Source: Trueperaceae bacterium (GTDB lineage: Bacteria; Deinococcota; Deinococci; Deinococcales; Trueperaceae). Taken from it: a stretch of 64,000 bases of DNA. The notes beneath the pieces are model-generated. The model searched no databases. It was given only the letters and a program-made list of their open reading frames with translations, and had not been told where the DNA came from. How positions within the stretch are numbered: the first letter of the stretch is position 1; the number at the start of each line of letters is the position of its first letter. This document shows positions 10,346 through 63,594 of this stretch, piece after piece. Location: positions 1,184,001 through 1,248,000 of the forward strand of contig OZ243927.1 of NCBI GenBank assembly GCA_965213925.1, in the 5' to 3' direction. The position numbers and the translations under genes were made by a program.

Positions 10346-10604
10346 TACAGCGTTAATCAAGTTTTGCTACTTATTAGCATGTCACCCTGTTCACGAAGTA
10401 GAGCGAAGCTTCGGCGAAGGCGTAAGGGTCTCGGTTGGCTATGCCAAAACTGTGTAACTTTCGTTCTCTGTCAGAGGAGTCAGCAAGGTCAGAGATTCTT
10501 ACACTCCGCTTCGCTCTCCTTCGGTTACGTAGTTTTCGCTTTTGCGAAAGGTACTGACGTGAACCGTTCAGAATGACGTGTTTCATCTTTTGGCTAACAG
10601 TGTA
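10346..10604. mobile_element. MITE-like repeat family A copy with nested micro-insertions
   Basis: Ends TACAGCGTTAA / CTAACAGTGTA; flanks CTGAT / CTAAT; core TGTCACCCTG...GGGTCTC...GAGATTCTT...CAGAATGAC shared with other copies. Confidence 0.85.
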
Positions 10605-10695
10605 CTAATGATTATGGCAGGTGTATAGGGCACGCTAAATAGCGAAGCTCAATCTACCTCGGACGCAGGTATTGATTTAGAACTAGATGCTGACT

Positions 10696-13996: not shown

Positions 13997-16900
13997 ATGT
14001 CTCACCACCTTTCACCTCGCTCCTTGAGAGCCTCCTTGAGCTTTCTCGGCCTTCTCCTCCTCCTCGTCGCCTGCGGTCGGGGCGGACCTTCTGGGGAGTA
14101 CCTGACGACCTACTTCGAAGTGCCAGCAGGCACCGCCGCCTTAGACGCCACCTTGAGCTATGACCCAGCAGCCCTCGAGTACCTAGGCGCAGCCTCAACC
14201 CAAGAGCAGGTCATGGTCGAAGCGAACGCCCACGCCGAGCGCGTCAAGCTCGCTAGCATCACCCTCAGCCCCGAAGGAAAACGCCTCGCCTTCGTGACCT
14301 TCAAGGTCAAACAGGGCGGCAGCGAGCCTAGCTTACAAAGCGCCTCTGCCTACACCTCAGCAGGCACGCCTCTAGGCAGGGTCACCGTGCGCAGCGAGCG
14401 CAGCGAACAAGACCTCGCCGCAAACTACCGCACCCCTGCAAGCCTCACCTCGCAAGCGGTGTCCGCACAAGACTTAGACCTCCAAGCCTCCTTCGCCGAA
14501 CGCTTACTCGGCGACGTCATTCCCGATAACGACAGCAACCCCAGCAACGACCTCAACTCGGTGGACGCCTTAGGCGTCTTGCAGCTCGCAGCAGGTGCAC
14601 TCAGCGCGCCAAGCGACCTGCAGCTCTACCTCGCCGACCTCGACACGAGCGGCACGGTCAACTCTATAGACGCACAAATCTCGCTGCTTAAAGCAGCGGA
14701 CGGCGACCTCGACGCCACCTTGCGGGCGACGCCTGACGCCTTACAACTCGAAGTGGGCGAGACCGGGCTGATCTTAGCGGGCAACGCGGGCAACGCGCCC
14801 TTGACGCTCGCTCTGCCGCAGGTGGACGGTGTGACGATCACGCAAGTCGGAGGCATTGCGAACCAGACGGCGGCTTATGAAGTGACGCCTGGTAGCGAAG
14901 CGAAGAGTGGGCTGATTGTGCTTGATGCGGGGAGTGCGGGGCGTAGAAGCGTCGGGCTACTCGTCAGCGGCGAGCCCATGCCAACTTTTGAACCCATCCG
15001 CATCAACGCGGGTGGCAAGCAGTATACGGACACCTCTGGAAACATTTGGAGCGCTGACCAGCACTTTAACGGCGGCCAAAATTGGCCCTCTACGCCCAAA
15101 AACGAGCCTATCGCGAACACCGAAAACGACGAACTCTATCAGACCGAGCGTAGCGCCAGCAAAGACCTGGGAACGTTTAGCTACGACATCCCTGTCGGCA
15201 GCGGCAGCTACACCGTCAAGTTGCACTTCGCCGAAATCTATTTTGGCGCGACCAACAGCCCTAGTGGACCCGGAGGCGCGGGCAAGCGCGTTTTTAGCGT
15301 CGATATTGAAGGTCAGAGTGACCTCTCCGGCTACGACATCAACGCCGACGTAGGACCGTCCACGGCGGTCGTTAAGACCTTCCCGAACGTGTCCGTCACG
15401 GACGGAGCCCTATCTCTGGACTTCTCTGCCAGCGTCAACCGCCCCAAAATCTCCGCTATCGAAATTCTCTCGGCAGAACCGACACCCGGCAAGCTCAGCG
15501 CTTCGTCCTCGAGCCTGGACTTCGGCTCTGTTGTCACGGGCAGCAGCAAAACCCAGAGCGTAACGCTGACGAACCTAGGCGAGTCGGGCGACACCAGCAT
15601 CGCTATCTCGAGCGTGTCGGTCGGTGGCGCGTTCAGCACCGACTTCGCTTCGACCACACTCGCCCCGGGCGCGTCGACCTCGTTCGACGTGACCTTCGCC
15701 CCGACTTCGACCGGAAACCAAAGCGCGCAGCTTAAAGTCGTTCACGACGCCCCCAACACGGCTTCGCCGATTACCATCACCCTCTCGGGCGAAGGCGCGA
15801 GTGACAGCGTCCCGACCGAGCCTTCCTTTAACTCGAGCGGTCTCGCAGGTGAATCCTCTAGCAATCCGACCTCGCTGCAGTTCGGTCCCGACGGCCGCCT
15901 CTACGTCGCGCAGCAGAACGGCACGATCTACGCCTACACCGTCGAGCGAGACGGCGCTAACGACTACAAGGTCGTCGATACCGAAGCGATCAACCACATC
16001 AAAAACATCCCTAACCACAACGACGACGGCACGAACTCGGGCGTGAATAACCGCCAAGTGACAGGGATTTACGTCACCGGCACGGCGAGCAACCCGGTGC
16101 TTTACGTCTCCTCGAGCGACCCCCGCATCGGCGCGGGCTCGGGTGGCGGCGACAAAGGGTTAGACACCAACTCCGGCGTCGTCTCACGCCTCACCTGGAC
16201 GGGCTCGAGCTGGTCGCATGTAGACCTGGTCCGCGGTCTGCCCCGTTCCGAGGAGAACCACGCCTCGAACGGCCTCCAACTTGACGAGGTCAACAACATC
16301 CTCTACCTGGCGCAAGGCGGTCACACCAACGCGGGCGCGCCCTCGAACAACTTCGCCTTCTCGACGGAGTACGCGCTCGCTGCCGCGATCCTCTCTATCG
16401 ACCTAAACGCTATCGGTAACACCACCTACGACCTGCCGACTTTGGACGACCCGACGCGCGATAACCTCGCGGACGGCTCCGACCCCGGCGACCCCTTCGG
16501 CGGCAACGACGGGCTCAACCAAGCCAAGCTCGTGCCTGGCGGTCCCGTGCAGATTTACTCGCCCGGCTACCGCAACGCCTACGACTTAGTCATCACCCAA
16601 GCGGGCCGCATGTACACCGTGGACAACGGCGCGAACGGCGGCTGGGGCGGTCATCCGGCGGGCGAAGCGGACGTTCCGAATGAAACGACGATCGGCAGCT
16701 GCACCAACGAATACTTGAGCGGCGAGCCCGGCTCGAAAGGCACCGGACCTGGCGGCGACTCCAAAGTCAACAACAAGGACAACTTGCACCTCGTCACCGC
16801 CGACTTCTACGCGGGTCACCCCACGCCGGTGCGCGGCAACCCGACGGGCGCAGGTCTCTACCTCGACAACCCCTACTTCAAAGGCTGGTTAGAGCCCGGC

Positions 16901-19893: not shown

Positions 19894-22800
19894 ATGTACC
19901 GACGAAACCTCACGCTCACCCTAACGATAAGCCTTCTCCTCCTCCTCGTCGCCTGCGGTCGGGGCGGACCTTCTGGGGAGTACCTGACGACCTACTTCGA
20001 AGTGCCAGCAGGCACCGCCGCCTTAGACGCCACCTTGAGCTATGACCCAGCAGCCCTCGAGTACCTAGGCGCAGCCTCAACCCAAGAGCAGGTCATGGTC
20101 GAAGCGAACGCCCACGCCGAGCGCGTCAAGCTCGCTAGCATCACCCTCAGCCCCGAAGGAAAACGCCTCGCCTTCGTGACCTTCAAGGTCAAACAGGGCG
20201 GCAGCGAGCCTAGCTTACAAAGCGCCTCTGCCTACACCTCAGCAGGCACGCCTCTAGGCAGGGTCACCGTGCGCAGCGAGCGCAGCGAACAAGACCTCGC
20301 CGCAAACTACCGCACCCCTGCAAGCCTCACCTCGCAAGCGGTGTCCGCACAAGACTTAGACCTCCAAGCCTCCTTCGCCGAACGCTTACTCGGCGACGTC
20401 ATTCCCGATAACGACAGCAACCCCAGCAACGACCTCAACTCGGTGGACGCCTTAGGCGTCTTGCAGCTCGCAGCAGGTGCACTCAGCGCGCCAAGCGACC
20501 TGCAGCTCTACCTCGCCGACCTCGACACGAGCGGCACGGTCAACTCTATAGACGCGCAAATCTCCCTTCTTAAAGCAGCAGATGGCGACCTCGACGCCAC
20601 CTTGCGGGCGACGCCTGACGCCTTACAACTCGAAGTGGGCGAGACCGGGCTGATCTTAGCGGGCAACGCGGGCAACGCGCCCTTGACGCTCGCTCTGCCG
20701 CAGGTGGACGGCGTGACGATCACGCAAGTCGGAGGCATTGCGAACCAGACGGCGGCTTATGAAGTGACGCCTGGTAGTGCGGCGCAGAGTGGGCTGATTG
20801 TACTCGATGCGGGGAGTGCGGGGCGTAGAAGCGTCACGATGCTCGTCAAAGATGCACCCTCGAGCCTACCGACCATCACCCTCACCACGCCCGCTGACGG
20901 CGCGACGCTGACAGGCGACTCCGTCGACCTCTTCTGGAACATCGAGCTTTTAGAGTCCGACGACCACGTCCACGTCTACGTCGACGGCGAGAAGAAAGAG
21001 GGCTCGGTCGACCCGAAAGCGCCTTACACGCTCGACTTCGCGGATAAGAACATCGAGCCGGGTCAGCGCGTGCTCGAGGTGCGCGTGTCCGACGCACTCC
21101 ATACCGAATACACCAACCCCAAAGCGTCCGACAGCATCACGGTAACGCTCGAGGCTGCTCCTGCCACCGGCGACGTACTCTACCGCGTGAACGCAGGCGG
21201 ACCCGAACTCGCTGCAGCGGACGGCTCTGCGCCCGCCTGGAGCAAGGACAGCACCGCGGCGGTCGGCAGCACGAACGCCTCTCCCTACCTCACCGCTGGT
21301 GACGCTAAACTCTATAATGACGGTATCGGAAGCGCCTACAAGGGTGACGTCACCATGTCCTCGACTCTTCCCGCGAGCGTGCCGAGTGCTCTTTTCAGCA
21401 CCGAGCGCTACGACCCCGCATCGCCTGAAGAGATGGCGTGGGCGTTCCCGGTCGCCGTCAACCAAACCGTTGAAGTGCGCCTCTTCTTCGCCGAAATCTT
21501 CTCCGGCGTAGACGCAGCAGGTCAGCGCGTCTTCGACGTGGCGGTCGAGGGAGACGTTCCGCCAGCTTTTAACGACATCGACCCCTTCGCAACCGCGGGC
21601 GCTAAAGGTGCCTTCATGCGCTCACACACGCTCACAGTGACGGACGGAACGTTGAATATCGACTTCTTGCACGACGTTATCGAAAACCCTGCGATTAAAG
21701 GCATCGAGATCGTCACAAGTGACGGCAGCGCGAGCAACGTACCGCCGCAAGTCCAGACCATCCCCAATCAGACGAGCGTCGAAGGCGACGGCACCGAGGA
21801 CTACCTCTTGAGCATCTCCGCGAACGACGCCGACAACGGTCCAAGCAACTTGACGTATAGCGCGACGGGACTGCCGTCCGGCGTTCAGGTCGAGCCGACG
21901 AACGGACAGATTTTCGGAACGATCGCCGCAGGCGCAGCCGCGAACAGCCCCTACACCGTGACGGTCACGGTCAGTGACGGCGCGAACATCGACCAGACGT
22001 CGTTCACTTGGGCGGTCTCCGAAACCGCGAGCGGTAACCCCGCCGCGCTCATCAAAGTCAACGCGAACGCCGGTCTCTTCGCGAGTACTTACGGCGACAA
22101 CTCGTTTCAGATCAGTAATACGGGCGACAGCAACATTGAACGCATTACCATCAACGCGAGCACCTCGTTCCTACCCGACGTTGTCTTCGACCCGGTCGGC
22201 AAAGCGGGCGACAATGGCGCGAAGTGCTTGACGACAGGTTCGGCTGGCAACACGGCCGCTCAAGTCGGGCTCATCTACCCGGCGAATGGTGGCAGCGACG
22301 CCGCGGACTGCGTGGACCCCTTCTCCGAGCCTCATAACGGTGCGAACGACGAAGAAGGTTACGACAAGCTCGACCTCGTCTTCACGGCGGGCGACGGCTT
22401 TAACCCAGGCGAGTCCTTCGCCTTCGGCGTGGACATGGACCCCACCAGCATTAAGGGTGACGGGAGCACGGGCGATGCGGGCTCGATCTCCGGCTTCGAG
22501 TTGATCGGCGCAACCGTCACCGTCGAATTTGCGAACGGCACCGTGACCTCGAGCCTCTGGGAAGAAGGCAGCTCAGGCGGCTCCCAAGTGGTCGTCGCAC
22601 CTGGCGCACCTAGCAGCCTAGTCATAAGCGCGGCGAACGTCAGCGGTAGCCAAGCAGAGGTTAGTGGCGCGGCGCAGACCATCACCCTGAGTGGACCTGC
22701 AAATGCAACGGTCACGCTCCTACGCGCGGACGCTCGCCTCTACATCGACGCGGGCGGGGGCGGCTACGACATTGACCCCTTCGAAGCTAACGAAGTGCTC

Positions 22801-25196: not shown

Positions 25197-25333
25197 AGAG
25201 TCCCTCAACTAAGAACATTGTTATCAAAATACTAACCCATGTCATTTTGAATGAAACGAGGTGGAATGAAGAATCTTGTCCCCTCGACAGGCTCGGGGTG
25301 ACAACAGTGTTGCAGAATTTAGTTGACAGTGTA
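25197..25333. mobile_element. MITE-like family A copy (short, left end degenerate)
   Basis: TGTCATTTTGAA...GAATCT...GGGGTGACA core; right end TTGACAGTGTA followed by CTAAG. Confidence 0.7.
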
Positions 25334-33160: not shown

Positions 33161-33173
33161 AATCAAGTTAAGA

Positions 33174-33418
33174 TAGCAGGCATCATCTGGTCAGCTACAC
33201 TCTCACTAAAAAGAACATCGCCTAGCACGCACTTTCAGGGATGACCTGTTCCCGGTTACACCGTTTTCGCGAATGCGAAAGGGAAACTTCGTAAGCGTCG
33301 CGTGGTTCACGAAGTACTTCCGAAGGAAACCGCTCCCGCTAGCTGCTTTAGCGGGTATATCTGCGGAGAAGTGTTGCTTCGCATGGCTTCGCCCAAGCAA
33401 CGATAAGTGAAACTGCTA
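33174..33418. mobile_element. MITE-like repeat family B copy with nested insertions
   Basis: Ends TAGCAG / CTGCTA; 33212-33373 matches 51154-51315. Confidence 0.8.
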
Positions 33419-42003: not shown

Positions 42004-42235
42004 TACACCGTTAAGTAAAAAATGACTCATGTCATTCTGAACGGAGCCCTACGGCGAGCGTAGGATAGACTCCGCCCTACGGTAAACCATAGGATAGACT
42101 CCGTGAAAGAATCTCTGCCCTTGCTGACTCCTCTGATAGAGAAGGAAAGTTACGTAGTTTTGGCATAGCCAACCGAGACCCTCACGCCTTCGGCTCAGGG
42201 TGACAACAATGGCGCAGAATTTACTTAACGGTGTA
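42004..42235. mobile_element. MITE-like family A copy
   Basis: Perfect TIR TACACCGTTAAGTAAA / TTTACTTAACGGTGTA; 5-bp direct repeat CTGAT on both sides. Confidence 0.92.
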
Positions 42236-42239
42236 CTGA

Positions 42240-42469
42240 TAGCGTTTCCACTTGAAGCTGCTACAGCAGCTTCAAATGTGAGCGGAAAAGAGCCTTTAGC
42301 TGGAGGTAGCGTTACGGGCAGCCGCCCTGCCGTTGCATCTTCAAATCAACGCACGTAGATAACGGCTCACTGTGCGTCGCGTGGTCCCGCTCCCGCTAGC
42401 TGCTAAAGGCTTCTCTGCGAATAGAAACAAACGCTGTCAGTGGTGTAGCAATGACTCGTGGAAATGCTA
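42240..42469. mobile_element. MITE-like element with family-B-type ends and internal AAGAGCCTTTAGC...GCTAAAGGCTTCT unit
   Basis: Ends TAGCGTTTCCAC / GTGGAAATGCTA. Confidence 0.75.
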
Positions 42470-42485
42470 TGAAAGTAGACGACTA

Positions 42486-42596
42486 TAGCAGGTATCATCT
42501 GGTTTGAGCCAATCTCACAAGATAGAACATTGTGCAGCACACACCTTAGGGGATGATATCTGCGTGATTCAAGCTCAGTAGTTATGATAATTGCTT
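42486..42596. mobile_element. MITE-like family B copy, short 'empty' form
   Basis: TAGCAGGTATCATCTGGTTTGAGCCAATCTCAC...GGGATGATATCTGCG aligns to the 33174 and 51051 copies without their inserts. Confidence 0.75.
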
Positions 42597-44067: not shown

Positions 44068-44458
44068 TGCAAGTTTTGCAGTACTGTTGTCACCCTGTTC
44101 ACGCAGTACGACGAAGTCCGGCGAAGGCGTAAGGGTCTCGTTTGGCAATAGCCAAAACTCTGTAACTTTCAATCTCAGCAAGAGGAGTCAGCAAGGTCAG
44201 AGATTCTTCGACTCCGCTTCGCTCCGCTCAGAATGACATGATTCATTATTTGTCCAACGATGTACTAGTACAGCGTCAACTAAGTATTGATACTTCCTAC
44301 TGATGTCACCCTGAGCGAATGCGTAAGGGTCTCGTCCTCCAATCTCGGCTAGGCAAGAAGGCGAATGCAGAGATTCTTACACTCCGCTTCGCTCTTCTTC
44401 GAAGGTGCTAACGCGAACCGTTCAGAATGACATCACTCATCTTTTAATTTACAGAGTA
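44068..44458. mobile_element. Two tandem MITE-like family A copies (44068-44264, 44269-44458)
   Basis: CTAG at 44064-67, 44265-68 and 44459-62 brackets the two copies; shared family A cores. Confidence 0.85.
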
Positions 44459-48825: not shown

Positions 48826-49217
48826 TACAGTGTTAGGTAAACAATGAAGCATGTCATTCTGAGCCCTACAGCGAGCTATAGGATAGACTCCACGCAGTGG
48901 AGCGTAAGAATCTCTGACCTTGCTGACTCCTCTGACAGAGAACGAAAGTTACGCAGTTTTGGCACAGCCAACCGAGACCCTCACGCCTTCGCCGGACTTC
49001 GTCTGACTGCGTGAACAGGGTGACATACCATCCCTGATGTCACTCTGAACGAAGCAACGCGAAGTGAAGAGTCTCTGCATTCGCCTTCTCCTTAGTGAGA
49101 GAGCACAGGGCGAGACCCTTACGCCCCTATCGTTCTCACTCCGTTCGGACCCGCCGGACTTCGTCGTACTGCGTGAACAGGGTGACAACAGTTTCGCGTT
49201 CTTTGCTTAACAGAGTA
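48826..49217. mobile_element. Composite MITE-like family A copy with two internal core units
   Basis: Ends TACAGTGTTAGGTAAA / TTTGCTTAACAGAGTA; 5-bp direct repeat CTGAG. Confidence 0.88.
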
Positions 49218-51043: not shown

Positions 51044-51050
51044 TACGTTA

Positions 51051-51339
51051 TAGCAGGTTCCTTCGCTTACGAAGTTTCCCTCCGGGAAGGCTGCGCGCAA
51101 TCAAAATCTGTCTCACTAACGTTCGGAGCTGGTTTGAGCCAATCTCACAGGGTAGAACATCGCCTAGCACGCACTTTCAGGGATGACCTGTTCCCGGTTA
51201 CACCGTTTTCGCGAATGCGAAAGGGAAACTTCGTAAGCGTCGCGTGGTTCACGAAGTACTTCCGAAGGAAACCGCTCCCGCTAGCTGCTTTAGCGGGTAT
51301 ATCTGCGGAGAAGTGGTGCAATGTCAAGTGGAAATGCTA
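51051..51339. mobile_element. MITE-like family B copy with nested insertions
   Basis: Ends TAGCAGG / GTGGAAATGCTA; 162-bp match to 33212-33373. Confidence 0.82.
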
Positions 51340-57124: not shown

Positions 57125-58740
57125 TGGCATTGGTCCATCGCCTTGGACAAAGTTAGTAGGAATAGACTTTGCTAAGGAGGAAGACAATGGCAGAAGGTAA
57201 AAGGGTTGTTCGGCAATATCCAGTCGAGTTCATACCCGCTGAAGCAGGGCACAGGAATTGGCGCGGTGGAACTGGTAGAAAAAAAGGGCTATCCAGTCAA
57301 GCTGGCGGCTTTAGCTTCCGCAGGAACGAACGGTGGCATCACTGAGGCAGCGAGAAGTCTGGGTATTTCCGAGTCGAACATCCACAAGTGGCGTAAGCAG
57401 TACCGGGAAGGGCGCTTAGTGATGGGGCATAAACGGGCACAGCCCACGGCTGATGAAGCTGAGTTACGGCGCTTGCAGGCGGAGGTGAAGCGGCTCGAGA
57501 CGGAGATTGGCGATTGTAAAAAAGGCCGCGAAGAGCCCTCAGCGAGAGGTTCCTTCGGAAGCTTCGCGCAATCATCTTTCAATCTAAGCGCGTAGATAAC
57601 GGCATGCTACGCAGTCGCGTGGACCGCTCCCGCTAGCAGCTGAGGCTCCTTTTTACTTTGCGAAACAGACGACCTAAAATGCACCTTCATCGAGGGGCAT
57701 CAAGGCGAGTTTTCCTGCTGTGTGAGGTGCTGGGCGTGGCTAGGAGCAGCTATTACCACTGGCGGGCGCGTCGGCAACGAGAGCCAAGCGAACGCGAGCG
57801 CAAGAACACCGAGCTACTGGAGAAGATCAAAGCGGTATTCGAGAAAAACAGGGGCAGGTATGGTAGCCCTCGGGTCCACCTAGAACGGGCAAAGCCCGCC
57901 CCTTCGGGGCTAGTTCGCTGAGCTGAAAAAGCAACAGGTCGCCTGCTCTTTGGGACGGGTCAAGCGGTTGATGCGTAAAGAAGGGCTCTTTGCTGTGAGC
58001 AGCAAGAAGGTCCACTTCAAACGGGAGCGGTGCGACCTCGAGACCCAGAACTTGTTGCTAGAGCAGCCACGCCCGACGGCGATCAATCAGGTGTGGCACG
58101 TCGATATCACGTACATTCCTACTGCCGAGGGCTGGCTCTACCTGGCGGGCGTCATGGACGCGAAGAGTCTTTAACAGCAGGTAGCATCTGGTCATGAACG
58201 CAGCAGGTTGGAAACGGCATGGTACGCCCTGTTAAAGACTTCTCTCCAAGCGCATTGTCGGCTACGCCATCCAGTCAAGCTGGACGAACGGTGAGCGACA
58301 ACATGAAGACCGACCTGGTGCTGCAAGCTCTACGCTCAGCCACGACCCGGCGCAAGCCCCCACCCGGCTTGATCCATCATAGCGACAGGGGGAGCCAATA
58401 TACTTCCTACGCCTATGGGCGTGAACTCGCCGCTTGTAAGATGTTGCCGAGTTTCATAGGTAAGGGCGCGTGCTTCGATAATGCGGTGATTGAAAGCTTC
58501 TGGTCAACGCTGAAAAGAGAACTCGTCTACCCAATAGGGCGCTTCGACACCCGCGATGACGCCCGAGTTGCAGTGTTTGAGTACATCGAGGTCTATTACA
58601 ACCGCGAGCGGCTGCACAGCTCGCTCAACTACGAGACGCCTGACACCTTCGAACTATCCCAACAGCAAAGAGAGAATCAGGAGGTGAGCCTAGCCGCTTA
58701 GCTGTATACTTTGGCTGTCCAAGGTTTTAAGCCAAGCCTA
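57125..58740 (+). mobile_element. IS3-family insertion sequence, inactivated by at least six internal insertions
   Basis: Imperfect IRs TGGCATTGGTCCATCGCCTTGGACA / TGTCCAAGGTTTTAAGCCAAGCCTA; OrfA HTH from ATG 57187; AAAAAAG slippery site near 57518; OrfB WHVDITYI, HHSDRGSQY, DNAVIESF, YYNRERLHS. Confidence 0.93.
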
Positions 58741-58865: not shown

Positions 58866-59147
58866 AGGTCTCCTTAAAAACGTAGCGATTAACTGCGCGG
58901 GTCGAGCACGTCACGGAGGGTGTTGCCAAGTAGATTAAAAGTCAATACGGTAATGGCGATGAAAAGCCCCGGCCAAACCGCCAACGTCGGTTCTAAAAAG
59001 AGGTACTGCTGCGCGTTTTGCAGCATGTTCCCCCAGGAGGCTAAGGACTATCGCCGAGGCTTTTTCTCGGTGATAGGGAATTAAACGGAATCCGTATCAC
59101 CCGTCTCGGCACAGCGCGCTTCACCCGAACGGTTTAGACTGTCAGCC

Positions 59148-60428: not shown

Positions 60429-60720
60429 TGTGCTAAGACCAACTGTTCCATCGTTGTCTCTATCTTTGACATATAAAGGGGTTCTACCTGCGAGCTATAG
60501 GATAGACTCCGCCCTACGGCGAGCGTAGGATAGACTCCTCTGAGAGAAAGAATCTCGTCTTCCACTCTCAACTAGTTGAGAGTGCGAGTTACGAAGTTTT
60601 GGCAGTAGCCAATTGCAGAGTTTTAGCGTAACTAAACAAGACCTTTACGCCTTCGCCGGACTTCGTCGTACTGTGTAGACAGGGTAACATTCCATATTGT
60701 AGAACTTAATTGACAGTGCG
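60429..60720. mobile_element. Degenerate MITE-like family A copy (left end uncertain)
   Basis: TAGGATAGACTCC tandem, GTTACGAAGTTTTGGC, CGCCTTCGCCGGACTTCG; right end TTGACAGTGCG followed by CTTAG. Confidence 0.7.
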
Positions 60721-63379: not shown

Positions 63380-63406
63380 ACCTCTAACCAACTTCCTCTA
63401 CCTTAG

Positions 63407-63594
63407 TACACTGTTAAGTAAGTTTTGCGACCTTGTTGTCACCCCGAGTGGAGCGCAGCGTAATCGAGGGGTCTCGCCTCGCATTCTCTGTTAGACAAGA
63501 AGGCAAATGCAGAGATTCTTTCACTCCATAGCCTGCCCTGAGCAACGTCGAATGGGTTCCGTTCAGAATGACATGTTTCTTATTTGACAGTGTA
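63407..63594. mobile_element. MITE-like family A copy
   Basis: TIR TACACTGTTAAGTAA / TTATTTGACAGTGTA; 5-bp direct repeat CTTAG. Confidence 0.9.

Follow-up and report, generated by a model that had tools for sequence, protein, structure and literature searches.

Small non-coding insertions in a dead IS3-family element and a 37-nt insert found in three genomes

Small dispersed repeats (SDRs) of heterocyst-forming cyanobacteria are said to measure about 20-30 nucleotides (nt), to lie nested in each other and in other mobile elements, and to be moved by an unknown agent. The movement of the smallest bacterial repeats is partly understood for the repetitive extragenic palindromes (REPs), and not at all for the SDRs. 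In the passages of the REP literature drawn on here, REPs are hairpins of 20-40 nt that form foldbacks of ~70-110 nt as dimers (REPINs), in some cases lie within genes or small palindromes, leave no obvious duplication of the target and supposedly move in single-stranded form (PMC3733652; PMC3116915); the REP-associated tyrosine transposase (RAYT) cleaves single-stranded REP DNA (Di Nocera 2013, PMC3733652). The present study concerns a dead insertion sequence (IS) of the IS3 family in a window of 64,000 nt (contig OZ243927.1, positions 1,184,001 to 1,248,000), which is interrupted by six small segments, named I1 to I6 (Table 1). A preliminary description, made from the letters of the window alone, had read these segments as discrete insertions of a mobile system comparable to the SDRs. 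The best overall explanation, which we hold to be moderately probable, is a recently dead IS3 element struck by seven small non-coding repeats that would have been moved in trans.

With SDRs the inserts have very small size and nesting in common (a 20-nt element in a 22-nt element, and a 37-nt element within a 78-nt insert in Allomeiothermus silvanus), whereas the sequences differ and the host here is probably of another phylum. The analogy of the preliminary description is apt for behaviour, that is for function only; the nearest relatives of the IS3 element, of I4 and of an IS630 element described below are Deinococcota, not cyanobacteria. REPs with their RAYTs, not named in that description, are an equally close or closer known kind. 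Characteristic of REPs are a terminal GTAG or CGTC beside an imperfect palindrome, many copies, most of them outside genes, and a RAYT gene with the repeats on its flanks. Size, foldback dimers, location and missing target duplications are alike, but the six inserts lack a terminal GTAG or CGTC, the stems of the 22-mers have only 3-4 bp and the window holds no RAYT. One module of the window, at 10524-10547, is an exception, as it is REP-like in having GTAG beside a hairpin. Rickettsia palindromic elements (RPEs) are larger than the inserts of the IS3 element. They are palindromic repeats inserted within open reading frames (ORFs), as the inserts are, yet the sections of the review that treat them describe insertions in frame into genes likely still functional (PMC3733652), whereas here the host gene is dead and five of six inserts break the frame. 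Deinococcus radiodurans carries dozens of mosaic small non-coding repeats (SNRs; Makarova et al. 2007, PMC1978522), which by their description in parts of that paper resemble our repeats in the mosaic build and belong to the same phylum as the nearest IS3 relatives; SNRs are reported there as intergenic, not as insertions recording events inside an IS. The phyla listed for REPs in the portion of the review used here do not include Deinococcus-Thermus, and the word 'Deinococcus' occurs 0 times in that text (PMC3733652).

Table 1. Coordinates of the IS3 element, its inserts and related repeats (window positions unless a locus is given)
Feature	Position	Strand	Remarks
Dead IS3-family insertion sequence	57125..58740	+	1,616 nt in the window, 1,294 nt after removal of I1 to I6; from NF033516, Pfam rve/rve_2/rve_3, relatives and excision
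Left terminal inverted repeat of IS3	57125..57149	+	begins TG; pairs with the right end at 16/25 positions; direct reading
Start of orfA up to I1	57187..57232	+	
I1	57233..57254	+	22 nt, in orfA at TTCA^GAAT
I2	57293..57334	+	42 nt, in frame in orfA at TAT^GGC; I6 22-mer (57293-57305 + 57326-57334) with nested 20-mer
N20	57306..57325	+	20 nt, nested at CTGG^ACGA inside the I6-type element
Extra single base	57506	+	shifts the orfA frame
A AAA AAG slippery heptamer	57518..57524	+	IS3 programmed -1 frameshift, conserved; also in the intact L001 element
I3	57531-57650 or, better, 57532-57651	+	120-nt foldback with terminal inverted repeats
CTTCCGAAGGA module	57551-57561	minus	inside I3
Second frame break	57707..57718 (approx.)	+	net -1, N-terminal part of orfB
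I4	57880..57916	+	37-nt double hairpin (CTAGAAC...CTAGTTC), in orfB at CCAC^GCTG
I5	58163..58241	+	79-nt foldback, terminal inverted repeat of 12 bp without mismatch; lies in orfB behind GACGCG
I6	58271..58292	+	22 nt, in orfB at CAT^GAG; sequence equals the outer part of I2
Right terminal inverted repeat of IS3	58716..58740	+	direct reading
I4 relative, Trueperaceae genome	L001 10991-11027	minus	89% identity, exactly 37 nt; ~200 nt past its IS3
I4-like 37-mer, A. silvanus pMESIL01	L082 1496-1532		within a 78-nt insert (26 + 37 + 15 nt)
Intergenic I3 relative	42288..42414	+	~79% identity; two compensatory changes in the terminal inverted repeat
Longer mosaic-family member	33173..33373	+	relative to I3, extra 23-nt module (33306-33328) between GTGG and ACCGC
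Longer mosaic-family member	51049..51315	+	further ~65-nt block near the 5' end
GTAG-tagged hairpin module, 24 nt	10524..10547	+	absent from paralogous copies 44376-44436 and 63520-63578

Excision and junction alignments of the IS3 element

All four uninterrupted pieces of the host element matched the NCBIfam model NF033516 (IS3 family transposase), at the successive model positions 17-76, 106-156, 157-241 and 252-369, and the Pfam domains rve, rve_2 and rve_3 were found on the C-terminal ORF. The organisation is that of the IS3 family: orfA, with a helix-turn-helix, precedes orfB (DDE, rve), which lies in the -1 frame, and an A6G slippery site is present. Scripted removal of the six segments of 22, 42, 120, 37, 79 and 22 nt (322 nt together) restored the IS3 frames. 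The preliminary description, which had given the restored element about 1.29 kb, was right in the coordinates and lengths of the segments, except that the 120-nt insert was better placed at 57532-57651, where the junction reads Ile, as in four of the six closest relatives shown (Val in the other two), instead of Phe. The single-base frameshift near 57506 that it had described was also recovered; a second break in the N-terminal part of orfB had been missed.

The restored OrfB comprised 282 amino acids (aa) without a stop and was 85.6-89.4% identical to seven intact relatives; its DDE motifs read intact. A protein search with the last uninterrupted piece gave intact OrfB relatives of 275-282 aa, with 87-94% identity over that piece, and in tblastn of OrfB relatives against the region homology picked up exactly behind each OrfB insert. 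For the restored OrfA (101 aa) the end-to-end identity to intact relatives of 101 aa was 90-94%; the protein search had returned 43 relatives, most of them of this length. At the OrfB junctions (I4, I5, I6) none of 120 protein relatives showed a gap within three residues. Comparison with 80 genome loci gave gapped alignments in 3/86, 0/88 and 0/88 cases, the three gaps spanning three columns at most. Gaps at the OrfA junctions were equally rare among protein relatives (I1 0/40; I2 1/41, one column; I3 0/30) and against the loci (I1 0/52; I2 4/61, natural indels of 1-3 residues; I3 0/56). Because the intact relatives examined carry none of the segments, these are, as judged from the alignments, true insertions and not ancestral IS3 sequence; the comparison, which the preliminary description had left as a check on its reading, came out in its favour. 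Five of the six inserts break the frame, only I2 (42 nt) is in frame, and stops are introduced by the inserts. With the nested insert counted separately, seven insertion events of 20-120 nt occurred in the element, one of them nested, and none of the seven has a visible target duplication. The barely decayed coding frame of the IS thus supplies a polarity that is usually missing, namely seven insertion events with exact ends.

Only three of 178 positions invariant in the seven intact relatives were changed in the restored OrfB. In a leave-one-out control, each intact relative differed at 4-12 of 182-190 invariant positions. The IS3 element is essentially without excess point decay despite seven insertions and two small indels; therefore the insertions were fast or recent. 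Either micro-insertions arise nearly as often as substitutions in neutral DNA of this genome, or the IS3 element was a preferred target. The high ratio of insertions to substitutions is, besides the cross-genome 37-nt element, the point of real interest, and it suggests that dead transposase genes may serve as natural recorders of micro-insertion rates.

The element itself is flanked by the triplets GAC on the left and TCC on the right, with no target duplication of 3-4 bp visible, and lies among ordinary chromosomal genes of a free-living bacterium with ~60% GC. Leads to the affiliation of this bacterium conflict: the mobile elements point to Deinococcota, whereas the best plasmid match of hydantoinase B came from Thermomicrobium roseum (61.6%) and a protein-atlas search with G6PD gave three equal first hits of different phyla. 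The neighbourhood of the IS is a small graveyard of broken genes; ~150 nt from its right end, at 58892-59047 on the minus strand, an ABC permease is represented by its C-terminal part alone (BPD_transp_1 positions 144-181 of 184). In one scan of genome contigs the nearest genome was a metagenome-assembled genome (MAG) of the Trueperaceae, whose IS3 (locus L001, one of the 80 loci) is 61% identical. The other 79 loci contained none of the repeats of the window. In the plasmid collection the IS region matched the conserved IS3 core only, with 4-5% cover, and two repeats of the window had no match.

Insert families and their copies

At least four unrelated families and two architectures can be distinguished among the inserts: foldbacks ended by inverted repeats (79 and 120 nt), and hairpin elements of 20-37 nt that lack such ends. 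The families, at least four in number, are the mosaic foldbacks I3 and I5, the 37-nt I4, the 22-mer I6 together with the shell of I2, and the singleton I1.

I4 provides the strongest case. In the Trueperaceae MAG, its relative interrupts the transposase gene of an IS630-family element, with KYLDQ on one side and SGFSLML on the other, and the intact relative of this IS630 in Deinococcus sp. QL22 is uninterrupted at the site. The sole boundary that fits both host genes is (C/A)TAGAAC...CTAGTTC. The IS630 group to which this gene belongs is moreover split in two ORFs where a run of A meets a run of G; this split is probably programmed and not a lesion, because the Deinococcus relative has the same split. 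An intact IS3 lies in or beside the 3' part of this IS630 element (L001 9588-11570). A plasmid BLAST with I4 returned one match that covered at least 80% of the query, on pMESIL01 of A. silvanus. There, a 78-nt insert splits a TnpB gene between GVDLGI and VNLATDSDG, and the intact TnpB paralogue on pMESIL02, 88% identical, is without the insert. The outer 41 nt of the insert form two hairpins, with I4 in the loop of the second, and we infer from the I4 boundaries a nesting of I4 in an outer 41-nt element, of which no outer-only copy was found. The TnpB pseudogene and its 78-nt insert are included in a segmental duplication of several kb on pMESIL01 (L082/L086, ~12-17 kb and 252-257 kb), and the genes beside it carry the same protein accessions in either copy; the two I4 copies on the plasmid were counted as one event because both lie in this duplication. 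The ends of I4 are fixed independently by three host genes in three genomes.

I4 is preceded by CCAC, by CCAG and, in the nested copy, by CCGG. Its structure consists of two adjacent GC hairpins closed by an outer stem of 4 bp. When the three copies were placed on this three-helix structure all 39 pair cells were paired, with two compensatory pairs (outer stem and hairpin 2). Slid controls paired only 13-54% of the cells, but 60 of 500 shuffles equalled the real pairing, and for three sequences only the result is suggestive of a structure under selection. All three I4-type copies lie in transposase genes (IS3, IS630, TnpB) and in sense orientation; the L001 copy was found by a route biased to IS-rich DNA. 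If a preference for transposase genes were real, which is unproven, it would imply a mechanism of host or parasite that disables insertion sequences by insertion of small hairpins.

The I6 22-mer occurs twice in the IS3 element with identical sequence, both times at AT^G, and one copy, the shell of I2, was hit by a 20-nt module of the CTTCCGMAGGA type (N20). This recurrence, and the same I4 ends in two host genes of two genomes, bear out that the segments are discrete insertions. Two nested inserts had been proposed; the I2 case was confirmed as the I6 22-mer plus 20 nt, and the other may be the CTTCCGAAGGA module in I3, which is not proven. The N20 core CTTCCGMAGGA was matched exactly four times in the window, where 0.09 matches were expected; two of the four lie within one 162-nt duplication. 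The core is common to the 23-nt module present in both the 33-kb and the 51-kb elements and to the minus-strand module inside I3. The PATEs derived from IS200/IS605 insert 3' of a fixed short target, without target duplication, and have subterminal hairpins but no terminal inverted repeats; here no duplications were seen and I6 follows AT at two of two sites, but the sites of I6 and I4 are too few for a target rule. A terminal CGTC tag on I6 was considered and rejected; CGTC is internal to the reverse complement, and the stem has 4 bp against the 8-9 bp given for CGTC REPs in the source passages used. The IS3 element's own ATCCAGTCGAG at 57218-57228 matches the 5' end of I6 plus the AT flank at 10 of 11 positions, by chance or as a hint of target mimicry. 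For I1 no second copy was found in the sequence data examined.

I3 and I5 both start with AAGAG and carry terminal inverted repeats. I5 has its terminus type and internal blocks in common with I3 and with elements near 33173 and 42484, and in an alignment common blocks run through I3, I5, 42288-42414, 33173-33373, 51049-51315 and 42484-42564, the differences being discrete modules. The terminal repeat type AAGAGYCYTYARC of I3, I5 and the copy at 42288 had three exact matches and five with at most one mismatch, against 1.02 expected, and the two ends co-vary between the foldback copies. A shared CGCG^ target for I3 and I5 was dropped after the one-base re-placement of I3 had weakened it. The longer members at 33 and 51 kb include a 162-nt exact duplicate (33212-33373 and 51154-51315) within two intergenic structured elements, which flank signalling genes (a PAS histidine kinase; PAS-LuxR and GGDEF). 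The duplicate has no match in Rfam and may be more than a repeat, namely a small RNA or a regulatory element.

Origin of the inserts and rival explanations

That the inserts are discrete mobile micro-elements is very likely, and in this lineage mobile DNA of very small size is probably active. The comparable ultra-small mobile system postulated in the preliminary description is supported in part, by the insertions, their fixed ends, the nesting and the related modules in the window; a single system for all inserts is not, as they span at least four families. In our proposal the death of the IS3 element was recent, and seven separate small-repeat insertions would have taken place at its death or since. 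The inserts would be non-autonomous elements mobilised in trans. They may have travelled as hairpins of single-stranded DNA, processed by a transposase of the HUH/Y1 type (RAYT, TIRYT or IS200-type TnpA) whose gene would lie elsewhere in the genome. This route is put forward tentatively; it is favoured because it would account for the hairpins, the tiny size, the missing target duplications and the choice of other hairpins as insertion sites. The dead IS3 would retain its inserts because it is among the few neutral stretches of a gene-dense genome. The locus offers a clean set of substrates for the testing of candidate mobilisers.

Several results weigh against this explanation. Neither the 37 ORFs of the window nor 150 stop-to-stop frames of its unannotated parts contained a Y1, TnpB or reverse-transcriptase gene, and by direct reading none of the six inserts ends in the REP-defining GTAG or CGTC. 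The terminal inverted repeats of I3 and I5 fit a DDE transposase no less well than they fit a Y1 enzyme. The identity of the two I6 copies may stem from gene conversion between them. Searches of the 64 kb with the whole patterns of I1, N20, I4 and I6, allowing up to three mismatches, gave self-matches only. Models of I4 detected no further convincing copy in the window plus L001 (84,798 bases), and in 100 kb of pMESIL01 nothing past the training copy, the next match (E 0.0044) being without hairpin 2; BLAST of a further 50 kb of this plasmid gave a 14-nt match only. Compared with 72,556 plasmids, I2, I3 and I5 had no meaningful match. Finally, all inserts had been described as hairpin-forming. 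DNA-fold z-scores for I1 to I6 were -0.74, +0.79, -1.02, -1.88, -2.91 and -0.91; the description held for I5 (79 nt) and I4 (37 nt), which alone fold better than shuffles, and failed for I1, I2, I3 and I6.

The rival that survives best, although rather unlikely, divides the inserts between two mechanisms, with I3 and I5 as ordinary miniature inverted-repeat transposable elements (MITEs) moved by a DDE transposase and the inserts of 20-37 nt moved by something else. Like bacterial MITEs, I3 and I5 are non-coding foldbacks of 79-120 nt with terminal inverted repeats and further copies in the window. The common AAGAGYCYTYARC-type ends with their co-variation speak for it, as do the foldback stabilities (z = -2.91 for I5 and -2.74 for the copy at 42290). 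Unlike MITEs, neither insert is flanked by a target duplication or lies in an AT-rich target, no cognate IS or transposase gene with ends of the I3/I5 type was found in the window, and the family is a strong mosaic of many internal modules whose longer members lack the same termini. In a literature search on MITEs in Deinococcus, Thermus or Meiothermus, none of the 15 papers listed out of 3,263 used the term, a weak sign that the elements are undescribed.

Very unlikely is an origin of the inserts as templated filler DNA, for which hairpin-rich repeats would have been the source in double-strand-break repair or in template switching at replication, and which would have survived in a pseudogene. 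The absence of target duplications and the large number of small inserts relative to point changes would be in line with it. So would the resemblance of parts of I1 and N20 to pieces of repeats, not whole elements: the first 15 nt of I1 agree at 14/15 nt with the terminal hairpin of the 33-kb and 51-kb elements (33343-33357 and 51285-51299, minus strand), and part of N20 matches a piece of another repeat at 14/15 nt. Yet identical ends recur in independent copies, twice for I6 and, for the 37 nt of I4, in two genomes and different host genes, and the third I4 copy has compensatory changes in its stems; random filler would reproduce neither boundaries nor pairing. An RNA intermediate, that is small structured transcripts reverse-transcribed and then integrated, is highly improbable. 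UUCG-type loops occur among the hairpins and the three I4 copies are all sense to their host transposase genes, but three of three carries little weight (chance 0.25), no family was found in Rfam, and neither a reverse transcriptase in the window nor poly-A or other hallmarks of retro-elements were found. Artefacts of assembly or sequencing, or ancestral IS3 sequence lost in the relatives, have a negligible probability, since no relative has the segments, frames are broken and stops introduced by them, and I4-like elements occur in the finished genome of the cultured A. silvanus DSM 9946 and in an independent MAG.

Further candidates were rejected. Remnants of Oxford Nanopore (ONT) or PacBio adapters were considered on account of coincidences of 7-9 nt with the adapter sequence, which by our own estimate are about what chance gives, and I4 is also present in a finished genome. 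Neither CRISPR spacer-like integration nor excision footprints would fit the sizes and the repeated ends.

Returning to small repeats moved in trans, it is quite unlikely that they represent an undescribed class of ultra-small structured DNA elements (20-41 nt) in Deinococcota and relatives, which would be smaller than REPINs, free of REP tags, inserted without target duplication at a rate near that of substitution, and ending up in, or aimed at, transposase genes. No description of these insert families was found in Rfam or in a limited literature search.

Other repeats and genes of the window

Rfam gave no match at the gathering score and, at E values up to 1, one unrelated weak match outside the region; the tRNA scan found none. 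The hairpin module GTTACRYAGTTTT had eight matches in the window against 0.17 expected, one of them a clean presence/absence difference of 24 nt. The stem TTTTCGC..GCGAAAGG had three matches against none expected and recurs in another element family. The stem of the GTAG-tagged module at 10524-10547 is also present at 33263-33282 and 51205-51224.

A mosaic family of intergenic repeats occupies 10379-10608, 42004-42235, 44083-44433, 48850-49192, 60490-60673 and 63403-63575 (also 25292-25306), in both orientations. It is built of GTCATTCTGA.. modules, GGATAGACTCC tandems and GTTACRYAG hairpins, with ends of the AGTACACTGTTA type, and the differences between its copies are entire modules of 24-50 nt. 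Two neighbouring giant malectin/Ig-domain genes share, in their 5' parts (14049-14953 and 19931-20835), near-identical blocks of 625, 128, 65, 16 and 30 nt, a pattern that points to a recent duplication or gene conversion.

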